A stretch of 5,656 bases of DNA, taken from Escherichia coli. Its GTDB lineage: Bacteria; Pseudomonadota; Gammaproteobacteria; Enterobacterales; Enterobacteriaceae. Under the pieces are notes generated by a model, which saw only the letters and a list, made by a program, of their open reading frames with translations, searched no databases and had not been told where the DNA came from. Location: assembly GCF_003334765.1 (NCBI RefSeq), contig NZ_QOWT01000063.1. One strand, 5' to 3'. Shown one piece after another: positions 1 through 125 of this stretch. The position numbers and the translations under genes are program-made. Each line of letters starts with the position of its first letter. The first letter of the stretch is position 1.

Positions 1-42
1 GAGCGGTTTTTCAATTGCCTCAATGGCATCAGACGGATTCAT
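1..42 (-). CDS. Possible 5' end of a gene running off the left edge (partial; only 14 codons visible: MNPSDAIEAIEKPL)
   Basis: The reverse complement of 1..42 reads ATG AAT CCG TCT GAT GCC ATT GAG GCA ATT GAA AAA CCG CTC with no stop before the edge. A weak GGGAA Shine-Dalgarno-like motif lies about 7 nt upstream. It sits just downstream (on the minus strand) of the terminator at 55..98. Too short to judge its coding character. Confidence 0.2.
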   Translation of the reverse strand, partial: MNPSDAIEAIEKPL

Positions 43-54
43 ACATGTATTCCC

Positions 55-98
55 GGTGAAAAAAGACAAAACCCCGCGCACCGGAAAGGTGGCGGGGG
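55..98 (-). terminator. Rho-independent terminator for the 126..1289 gene
   Basis: Seen in sequence: a GC-rich hairpin at 72..97 (72-77 pair with 92-97, a one-base bulge at 78, 79-82 pair with 88-91, loop GGAAA). On the minus-strand RNA it is followed directly by UUUUGUCUUUUUU (reverse complement of 55..71). It lies 28 nt beyond the stop codon at 126..128. Confidence 0.55.
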
Positions 99-125
99 AT
101 TCACGGAAATAATATCTGTCTGAAA

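Follow-up and report, generated by a model that had tools for sequence, protein, structure and literature searches.

The left edge of a 5,656-nucleotide (nt) stretch of Escherichia coli DNA (contig NZ_QOWT01000063.1 of assembly GCF_003334765.1; the whole stretch is hereafter called the window) carries, on the minus strand, the first codons of a gene for a GTPase of the YeeP/YkfA/YfjP family together with its leader. This leader spans about 95 nt (window 137..43, minus strand) and consists of a 38-nt promoter block, a predicted transcription start (+1) at G102, a hairpin, a U tract and a weak Shine-Dalgarno (SD) sequence, in this order and directly followed by the ATG; we refer to it as the cassette (Table 1). 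The GTPase gene itself is already known and unremarkable. The new part is its control region, in which a bacterial gene appears to stand behind a promoter of the class that jumbo phages place before genes of their own.

A preliminary description of the window had noticed that a minus-strand ATG at 42..40 opens a frame running off the left edge, and had taken it for the possible start of a further gene behind a terminator. This frame (MNPSDAIEAIEKPL) stays open down to position 1 with no stop, its codons reading AUG AAU CCG UCU GAU GCC AUU GAG GCA AUU GAA AAA CCG CUC after UUCACCGGGAAUACAUGU. Many complete E. coli chromosomes match window positions 1-1300 at 100% identity, and 4157 of 5426 E. 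coli genomes contain a counterpart; the surroundings are described here from the annotated chromosome NZ_CP083512.1 (locus L001), in which position 12001 corresponds to window position 1. There, the RefSeq coding sequence (CDS) 11170..12042(-) begins at exactly the window ATG and specifies a product of 290 amino acids (aa) annotated as 'GTPase family protein' (WP_001069705.1), with 276 more codons lying to the left of the window. Relatives that share the residue-1 start were found at 31 loci in a dozen Enterobacterales genera, with 42-97% identity. Neither an early in-frame stop nor a lack of homologues was encountered, and the suspected gene proved real: the window ATG is almost certainly the genuine start of a yeeP-family GTPase gene.

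The encoded protein is a member of the YeeP/YkfA/YfjP family, every defining feature that was tested being present. Its residues 39-148 match Pfam MMR_HSR1 (PF01926, TRAFAC-type P-loop; 1.3e-14), its translation shows the Walker A motif GKSGAGKS, and NCBIfam returned Era/MnmE/Der G-domain matches only, all of them sub-threshold. A full-length alignment with K-12 YfjP gives 50% identity (291 positions, E = 5e-97), and the GTPase gene shares ~96% nucleotide identity with the retained 3' part of the K-12 yeeP pseudogene. The three K-12 proteins, YeeP (CP4-44, pseudogene), YkfA (CP4-6) and YfjP (CP4-57), likewise have an MMR_HSR1 G domain and a length of ~290 aa; they share the position in the island, on the yeeS-yeeW/tmaR-yeeA side, and the upstream cassette is also common to the group. 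The differences are that the gene is intact in the window island, whereas K-12 yeeP lacks the 5' half and the leader; that the cargo 3' of the GTPase gene comprises dynamin-family, RdcB-like and patatin-like genes in the window island versus flu or DUF932 in K-12; that the -10 variant is TATTAT in the window versus TATCAT in the K-12 paralogue leaders; and that the hairpin begins 5 nt after the predicted +1 in the window versus ~15 nt in the K-12 paralogues. Three other identities were considered for the GTPase and rejected. It is not JukA, a sensor of jumbo phages, which is a YaaW/Cbp3-like protein and thus of another family; an Eleos/dynamin defence protein was dismissed, the G-domain similarity to LeoBC and LeoA reported by PADLOC being weak (33 and 19 bits); and an origin in jumbo phages was discarded, since phages give only TrmE-like matches at 22-28% identity and no homologue.

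Table 1 Features at the left edge of the window, in window coordinates
Feature	Position	Strand	Details
Upstream hypothetical open reading frame, 383 aa	126..1277	-	Locus-specific cargo outside the cassette; TAA stop (128..126) within the promoter block
Promoter block, 38 nt, GATTCCAGATAATTTCAGACAGATATTATTTCCGTGAA	137..100	-	Supported by a conservation boundary and by position weight matrix scores
-35-like hexamer TTCCAG	135..130	-	Read from the sequence
Invariant 15-nt 'spacer' ATAATTTCAGACAGA	129..115	-	Between the -35-like and -10-like hexamers
AT-rich core GATATTAT	116..109	-	Contains the -10-like TATTAT (114..109)
N6 TTCCGT	108..103	-	Between the core and G102
Conserved G, predicted +1	102	-	Six bases after the core
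Outer helix, 5' arm UAUUUCCGUGAA	111..100	-	Would pair with 60..48
GC-rich hairpin CCCCGCCACC / GGUG(C)GCGGGG	97..72	-	10-bp stem, one-base bulge C78, 5-nt loop UUUCC (87..83)
U tract UUUUGUCUUUUUU	71..59	-	Directly 3' of the hairpin
Outer helix, 3' arm UUCACCGGGAAUA	60..48	-	Covers the SD-like GGGA
Spacer between U tract and ATG, 16 nt	58..43	-	Weak SD-like GGGA (54..51), 8 nt 5' of the ATG
First 14 codons of the yeeP-family GTPase gene, intact	1..42	-	Gene extends 828 nt past the window edge

For a comparison of leaders, the 130 nt upstream of the GTPase start were extracted in all loci. At no fewer than 25 Enterobacterales loci, whose upstream flanks are unrelated, the GTPase ATG is preceded by this cassette architecture; among them are loci of Escherichia, Citrobacter, Photorhabdus, Hafnia, Yersinia, Serratia, Salmonella, Enterobacter and Pectobacterium. 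The shared pattern is a near-invariant ...AATAATTTCAGAyAGATATyATC..GTGAA, followed by a GC hairpin, usually a U tract, an SD-like stretch and the ATG, the spacing and phase relative to the ATG being conserved. At the other end conservation begins abruptly, ~23 nt 5' of the -10-like TATyAT hexamer, and the sequences beyond this edge are unrelated: the genes that lie 5' of the cassette elsewhere are rnlB (K-12 CP4-57), perR (CP4-6), insertion sequence (IS) fragments (an O157 strain) and unrelated open reading frames (ORFs). The cassette also precedes K-12 yfjP and ykfA and occurs at two more E. coli loci with other neighbours. Mean pairwise identity is 0.81 in the 38-nt block, compared with 0.72 in the first 300 nt of the CDS and 0.58, about the baseline of the aligner, in the upstream 60 nt, and the block holds its 0.81 while the aa identity of the GTPases falls as low as 43-60% across loci. 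The promoter block was found in 4237 of 5426 E. coli genomes (~78% of complete genomes), with a median of two copies. Judging from these alignments, the cassette very likely belongs to the GTPase gene and forms a self-contained, mobile promoter-leader unit.

Further copies occur in the same islands. One block copy (TATTGAAAATATTTTCAGATATATATTACCTGAGAGAA) lies at L001 6533..6496(-), ~5.5 kb left of the window, just downstream of the patatin-like gene's own terminator, and scores 35.5 bits with a position weight matrix (PWM) built from the island leaders and 38.1 bits with one built from phage sites (see below). It has no hairpin, and it precedes a 227-aa hypothetical gene (L001 5768..6451, with a signal-peptide-like N-terminus) followed by a 136-aa hypothetical. 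K-12 CP4-57 carries another full cassette (block, hairpin, U tract and SD) at L036 19942(+), before the ypjI pseudogene, and hence two copies.

By its sequence, the hairpin with its U tract fits the definition of an intrinsic (Rho-independent) terminator, and a simple terminator scan also picks it. The 101-nt region folds with a minimum free energy of -33.9 kcal/mol (z = -3.8), a stability equalled in none of 200 shuffles, and the fold of +1..+50 reaches -19.5 kcal/mol (z -3.2). From the predicted +1, the transcript would read GAAUCCCCCGCC..., with the hairpin at ~+6..+31 and the U tract extending to ~+44. Among the 14 leaders of the closest group, RNAalifold found compensatory changes in 4 of the 9 hairpin pairs, and across the wider set the structure is kept while the stem sequence turns over, at least five stem families being distinguishable. 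At the position of the window's weak SD, homologous leaders have GAGA, GAGGAG or AGGAG. Rfam 15 gave no match at the gathering score in the window and none at E ≤ 10 in L001 11900..12250. A U tract is present in 22 of 25 homologous leaders and missing from two Pectobacterium loci. The leaders of these loci (L020 and L021) retain the promoter block together with a GC hairpin of 9-10 bp and have neither the U tract nor the outer anti-SD helix described below, so that the hairpin there cannot act as a classical terminator.

The preliminary description had proposed that, if the gene is real, the terminator is an inter-cistronic attenuator. In a model of this kind, the hairpin ends or attenuates the transcript of the upstream 383-aa gene, and the GTPase is expressed by partial read-through of an operon. 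The terminator does stand directly before the start codon (at a U tract-to-ATG distance of 16 nt, which corrects the ~13 nt first given), the hairpin and U tract make a good intrinsic terminator, the stop codon of the upstream ORF sits 29 nt 5' of the hairpin, and an additional helix that would hide the SD sequence exists only in RNAs that come from upstream. However, the hairpin is kept with the GTPase gene where the upstream gene is a different one or is absent, as with rnlB, perR, IS fragments and unrelated ORFs; the stop codon and the hairpin are separated by the conserved promoter block; and sequestration of the SD sequence in a read-through RNA speaks against productive expression from it. 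Because the hairpin is conserved with the GTPase gene while the upstream DNA is unrelated, it is part of the GTPase cassette and not of an operon shared with the 383-aa ORF, and we regard expression by operon read-through as improbable.

The additional, outer helix would form between an arm within the promoter block and an arm covering the SD-like stretch (Table 1). Because its 5' arm precedes the predicted +1, this helix is possible only in RNAs arriving from upstream. The two arms co-vary: they are TTTCCG/CGGGAA in the window, TCTCAG/CTGAGA in other genera, CTCCTGAA/TTCAGAGGAG (CTCCUGAA/UUCAGAGGAG) in K-12 and CAUCUCC/GGAGAUG in Photorhabdus tasmaniensis (L017), with weaker forms in the related L018 and L019 (Cedecea, Serratia). 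Cognate arms pair with a mean of -9.5 kcal/mol versus -7.7 kcal/mol for non-cognate ones (permutation p = 0.0007), a statistic that is inflated by the relatedness of the leaders and is suggestive only.

The sequence upstream of the hairpin is very probably a promoter. Its AT-rich core occurs in the variants GATATTAT and GATATCAT, with a conserved G six bases downstream, and the leader of the island gene ykfA (ATATATCAT-CACTCT-G) has a format equal to that of the window (GATATTAT-TTCCGT-G). The block is not a canonical sigma-70 promoter, as the -35/-10 consensus with a 16-18 bp spacer is not present: a consensus scan for sigma-70 promoters over window 1..1500 on both strands returned no site, TTCCAG-15-TATTAT being the best reading. 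It may nonetheless be read by the host. In K-12, sigma-70 holoenzyme produced genomic SELEX (systematic evolution of ligands by exponential enrichment) peaks in the spacers perR-ykfA and rnlB-yfjP, to which the authors assigned TTGAAA-15-TATCAT by inspection (PMC3946193). This TTGAAA-15-TATCAT of the ykfA and yfjP spacers is the same promoter block. In a Cappable-seq data set of K-12, the entries listed for the perR-ykfA spacer include plus-strand starts at 268186, 268258 and 268350 (U00096.2), opposite the ykfA leader, so that the K-12 cassette is traversed by antisense or divergent transcription. The papers examined that mention yfjP say nothing of its regulation, and a literal literature search with the motif strings matched only unrelated primers.

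Copies of the block's motif also occur in jumbo phages. Scanned for exact matches to the pattern TTTCAGAYAKATATYAT, IMG/VR yielded more than 120 loci, many of them beyond chance, with similarity over 38 nt that includes ...ATC-TAGGTGAA and with several instances per 230-270 kb genome; 54 further motif instances were seen in IMG/VR contigs, in both the TATTAT and the TATCAT variant. When the 45-nt window block was compared by BLAST with 50,697 phage records, the matches fell almost only in 225-257 kb jumbo phages, in unannotated spacers, the hosts being Erwinia, Klebsiella, Serratia, Raoultella, Aeromonas, Ralstonia/Burkholderia and Stenotrophomonas.

We examined one of these phages, Erwinia phage vB_EamM_ChrisDB (244,840 bp), in which seven CDS are annotated as RNA polymerase (RNAP) beta subunits. 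The island-leader PWM, run over the whole genome, found 22 sites of ≥12 bits (maximum 38.6), all on the coding strand, compared with none in five shuffled genomes. Of these sites, 21 lie within or at the edge of intergenic spacers immediately 5' of genes; no annotated virion structural gene has one in front of it, and two operons with RNAP subunit genes carry the motif. Homopolymers aside, no words of the genome are more over-represented than the 12-mers of the motif (GATAGATATTAT and neighbouring ones), and these are strand-specific. In a reverse test, a PWM was built from the 21 ChrisDB sites alone, the phage's own sites being scored leave-one-out. With it, phage sites reached 28-47.7 bits and island leaders 24.5-48.3, while the window block scored 37.4 and the second copy in the island scored 38.1. 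ChrisDB and the islands have almost the same consensus (CATTCAAAAATATTTCAGATAGATATTATCTAGGTGAG and CATTCcAAATAATTTCAGAcAGATATTATCtCcGTGAA, respectively), with the upstream TTCAGAYAGA conserved, and the information of the phage-only PWM peaks in the 'spacer' TTCAGATAGA and in the starting GTGA, positions that sigma-70 does not read. By these scores the block is statistically indistinguishable from the ChrisDB set, and it looks like a sequence that works as, or mimics, a jumbo-phage early promoter. That block and phage motif are one promoter class is, on sequence comparison, a strong likelihood.

The two sets of sites differ in what stands behind them. The phage copies are followed by hairpins that are weak (-2 to -10 kcal/mol) and mostly lack a U tract, whereas the island copies have hairpins of -11 to -24 kcal/mol and U tracts in 22 of 25, so that the strong terminator is an island-specific addition. 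Since no GTPase homologue exists in these phages, the promoter alone is shared; and because the block is chromosomal and precedes a bacterial gene without phage homologue, we call it a mimic and not a phage promoter. In two IMG/VR contigs (L109 3382(-) and L117 7947(+)), a 44-bit copy of the promoter is followed ~60 nt on by a hairpin and U-tract terminator with no ORF between, which may be a small phage RNA gene under the same promoter class. The cassette itself could be thought of along such lines, its main product being an RNA of ~40 nt running from promoter to terminator and GTPase expression being incidental. The confinement of promoter, hairpin and U tract to 45 nt fits such an RNA gene, as do the phage copies with a terminator before any ORF. 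Yet the transcript would be nearly all hairpin, its stem sequences vary and leave no conserved single-stranded seed, spacing and phase relative to the ATG are kept, and even at E ≤ 10 there is no Rfam match; an RNA as the main product is very unlikely.

Which polymerase reads this promoter class can be approached through jumbo phages that have been studied. In every jumbo phage that encodes an RNAP, a single conserved AT-rich motif of ~10 nt lies near -10, upstream of early operons, and wherever tested this motif is the early promoter of the injected virion RNAP (PMC7598289). For AR9, the virion-RNAP promoter consensus is AAATATATATTAT-(6N)-G+1, and in phiKZ and phiR1-37 transcription likewise starts 6 nt past the motif (PMC5312081). 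The window, all island copies and the phage copies share this format of AT-rich core, N6 and G. Island block and phiKZ-related early promoters (AR9, phiKZ, phiR1-37) thus have in common an extended AT-rich core near -10 and a conserved G six bases downstream; the island block differs in standing on a bacterial chromosome before a bacterial gene with a strong GC hairpin and U tract behind it, and the island/ChrisDB-type motif has in addition the upstream TTCAGAYAGA and a -35-like part, neither of which is described for AR9. As the AR9, phiKZ and phiR1-37 format is identical, the ChrisDB motif can reasonably be taken for a virion-RNAP promoter, and by this analogy phage virion RNAP is the probable reader of the motif class. 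In the searchable literature, which does not extend to sequence logos in figures, we found neither this motif nor any chromosomal jumbo-phage promoter copy described.

This evidence bears on an explanation by ordinary host control, in which a weak sigma-70 promoter and a constitutive leader terminator together tune down a possibly harmful GTPase, and in which the phage motif reflects either the use of host RNAP by jumbo phages for that class of genes or a movement of the promoter between phage and island. Besides the holoenzyme peaks over TTGAAA-15-TATCAT in the K-12 ykfA and yfjP spacers (PMC3946193), it draws on the -10 hexamer, which has the critical A2 and T6, on the conserved G 7 nt downstream, which is sigma-70-like, and on the possibility that host RNAP transcribes some genes of RSL2, RSF1 and AR9 (PMC7598289). 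Nevertheless, the window copy fails the consensus scan, with a -35 matching only 2/6 of TTGACA and an unfavourable 15-bp spacer; the information content peaks in TTCAGATAGA and GTGA and not where sigma-70 reads; the motif is absent from non-jumbo phages that depend on host RNAP, among the 50,697 records compared by BLAST; and the block stays at 0.81 identity despite the coding drift. We consider ordinary host control unlikely, though it is the most serious of the alternatives.

The invariance of the TTCAGAyAGA 'spacer', which goes beyond any sigma-70 constraint, also led us to the idea of processive antitermination of the AlpA or Q type, in which an island regulator binds the conserved element between -35 and -10, loads onto RNAP and enables it to pass the terminator. 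In the lambda Q (PR'/tR') and Pseudomonas AlpA (PalpB/tB) systems, a conserved element within the promoter is followed by a terminator tens of nt on and by the gene directly behind it, as in the cassette, and the anatomy matches in particular the Pseudomonas alpB and PA0807 promoters, with their spacer element and early terminator before the first gene (PMC7969949). Within the window, at 4370..4576(-), lies a gene for a 68-aa helix-turn-helix protein of the AlpA family (MATPVSLMDD...), which would be a candidate for the regulator. The ~5 nt before the hairpin leave no room for an RNA-based antiterminator, so that any regulated read-through would require a protein factor. However, the published AlpA element GGGACG-N5-GGTA (PMC7969949) is absent from ATAATTTCAGACAGA, and the cassette is linked to no Q-like or demonstrated AlpA-type factor. 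The window protein is marginally similar to solved AlpA-family/TorI structures (E = 0.06-0.1), and K-12 CP4-6 has the cassette with no alpA seen in the 10 kb examined. The block moreover occurs 22 times in a phage genome, so that no island regulator is needed to explain its conservation. As the block belongs to a phage promoter class, the antitermination idea was demoted, and its chances are slim.

To the reading that we favour, namely that a phage-polymerase-type promoter drives the GTPase gene while the leader terminator limits host-driven expression, we give a probability of about 40%. The block would serve as a jumbo-phage-class promoter from which the GTPase gene is transcribed starting at G102. 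The leader terminator would end most host-polymerase transcripts at roughly 40 nt and would also halt read-through from the upstream cargo; RNAs that did run past it from upstream would carry the anti-SD arm (111..100), whose pairing with 60..48 would mask translation, and only RNAs begun at the cassette's own +1 would keep the ribosome-binding site free. The GTPase gene would then be near-silent in uninfected cells and be switched on when a polymerase recognising the phage-type promoter arrives, as in a jumbo-phage infection, and the GTPase and its downstream cargo would constitute an infection-responsive module for defence or hitch-hiking. We rate such infection-triggered expression of an island gene at about one in three. 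That the cell or the island uses the RNA polymerase of the invading phage as its infection signal, as a 'promoter-mimicry' sensor locked by the leader terminator and the anti-SD helix, is a tentative and rather doubtful further reading.

Satellite and defence genes turned on by the transcription machinery of an infecting phage are known, an example being the late promoters of P4, which respond to the P2 activator Ogr. The proposed logic is alike in that a chromosomal mobile element is silent until the phage supplies a transcription activity; the trigger differs, being an activator of host RNAP in the case of P2 Ogr, while in the island it would be a phage RNA polymerase acting on a copy of its own promoter.

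Several points weigh against this proposal. On the current view set out in a review, the injected virion RNAP is confined, together with the phage DNA, to an early-infection vesicle, leaving host genes untranscribed, and it is also kept out of the phage nucleus (PMC13282480). If the virion RNAP is confined in this way, access to a chromosomal promoter needs polymerase that has leaked or has been newly made in the cytoplasm. The genome of Goslar, a jumbo phage of E. coli, has annotated hairpin terminators; as jumbo phages thus carry such structures themselves, it cannot be taken for granted that a phage polymerase would run past the leader terminator. The first 50 kb of Goslar, when scanned, contained a related yet distinct core (TAYATTACCTAGGTGA). 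In addition, sigma-70 holoenzyme binds the K-12 spacers in vitro (PMC3946193), and it is by analogy that we infer a virion-RNAP promoter in the ChrisDB motif. Term-seq supplements for K-12, which is another strain than that of the window, hold no entry 5' of ykfA or yfjP, for which weak expression or multi-mapping are possible reasons, and in L006, L020 and L021 the outer helix is either weak or missing.

The Goslar motif (L163), ATTTnnCGnnTAYATTACCTAGGTGA, was seen at 43287(-), 2588(-) and 49753(-), scoring 11-23 bits on the ChrisDB PWM, which suggests a family of related early-promoter specificities among jumbo phages of Enterobacterales.

The preliminary description had also expected the island to continue leftwards, and it does: in 100%-identical E. 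coli genomes it reaches ~10.5 kb further left. In the annotated L001 neighbourhood the order is GTPase, dynamin-family, RdcB-like, patatin-like, two hypotheticals, DUF932, antirestriction, yeeS, yeeT, cbeA, cbtA and yeeW, after which the core genes tmaR/yeeA follow. Comparison of L001 with K-12 CP4-6, CP4-44 and CP4-57 places the GTPase gene in an island of the CP4 type, where the DUF932, antirestriction, RadC-like, DUF987 and CbeA/CbtA module lies downstream of it. Adjoining the window on the left (L001 6587..12042(-)) are the GTPase gene, a gene for a 798-aa dynamin-family protein, an RdcB-like gene and a patatin-like phospholipase gene. PADLOC, applied to the genes of this interval, returned weak LeoBC/LeoA matches (GTPase and dynamin) and phospholipase-effector matches only. 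The set may be an uncharacterised membrane-acting module in the cargo slot, which is occupied by flu (Ag43) in K-12 and by cah in O157, and it is plausible that the dynamin-like, RdcB-like and patatin-like phospholipase proteins are membrane-acting effectors. The spacer between the GTPase and dynamin-family genes (L001 10953..11169(-)) contains three close palindromic CGATCG-centred repeats, ACATCGATCGTTAC, ATATCGATCGTTAT and AAACGATCGTTTG, which look like operator sites of a regulator.

To the right of the cassette, the 383-aa upstream ORF has no family match in Pfam, NCBIfam or PADLOC. It is followed, at window ~1290..3670, by ~2.4 kb without a long ORF, in which decayed fragments of an IS21-family transposase and an AAA ATPase lie at ~2400..2850 (positions transferred from L001). 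On the same strand as the AlpA-family gene and downstream of it is a hypothetical ORF of 200-205 aa (window 3674..4291) with no family.

Our confidence is high for the anatomy of the cassette and for its sequence relationship to the jumbo-phage motif, and moderate for the assignment of a polymerase to the block, which rests on analogy. What is new is a 38-nt promoter that is more conserved than the gene it drives and that matches the hallmark promoter of jumbo phages with their own polymerase. Nucleus-forming jumbo phages evade restriction and DNA-targeting CRISPR (clustered regularly interspaced short palindromic repeats) systems. If a phage polymerase reads the block, the cassette would be a simple, sequence-encoded means by which bacteria or mobile islands detect such phages, and it would open a first way into the function of the YeeP/YkfA/YfjP GTPases and of the cargo slot that follows them. 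Should the motif instead be read by host sigma-70 RNAP, one class of jumbo-phage genes would be host-dependent, which would qualify the view that these phages transcribe their genes independently of the host.

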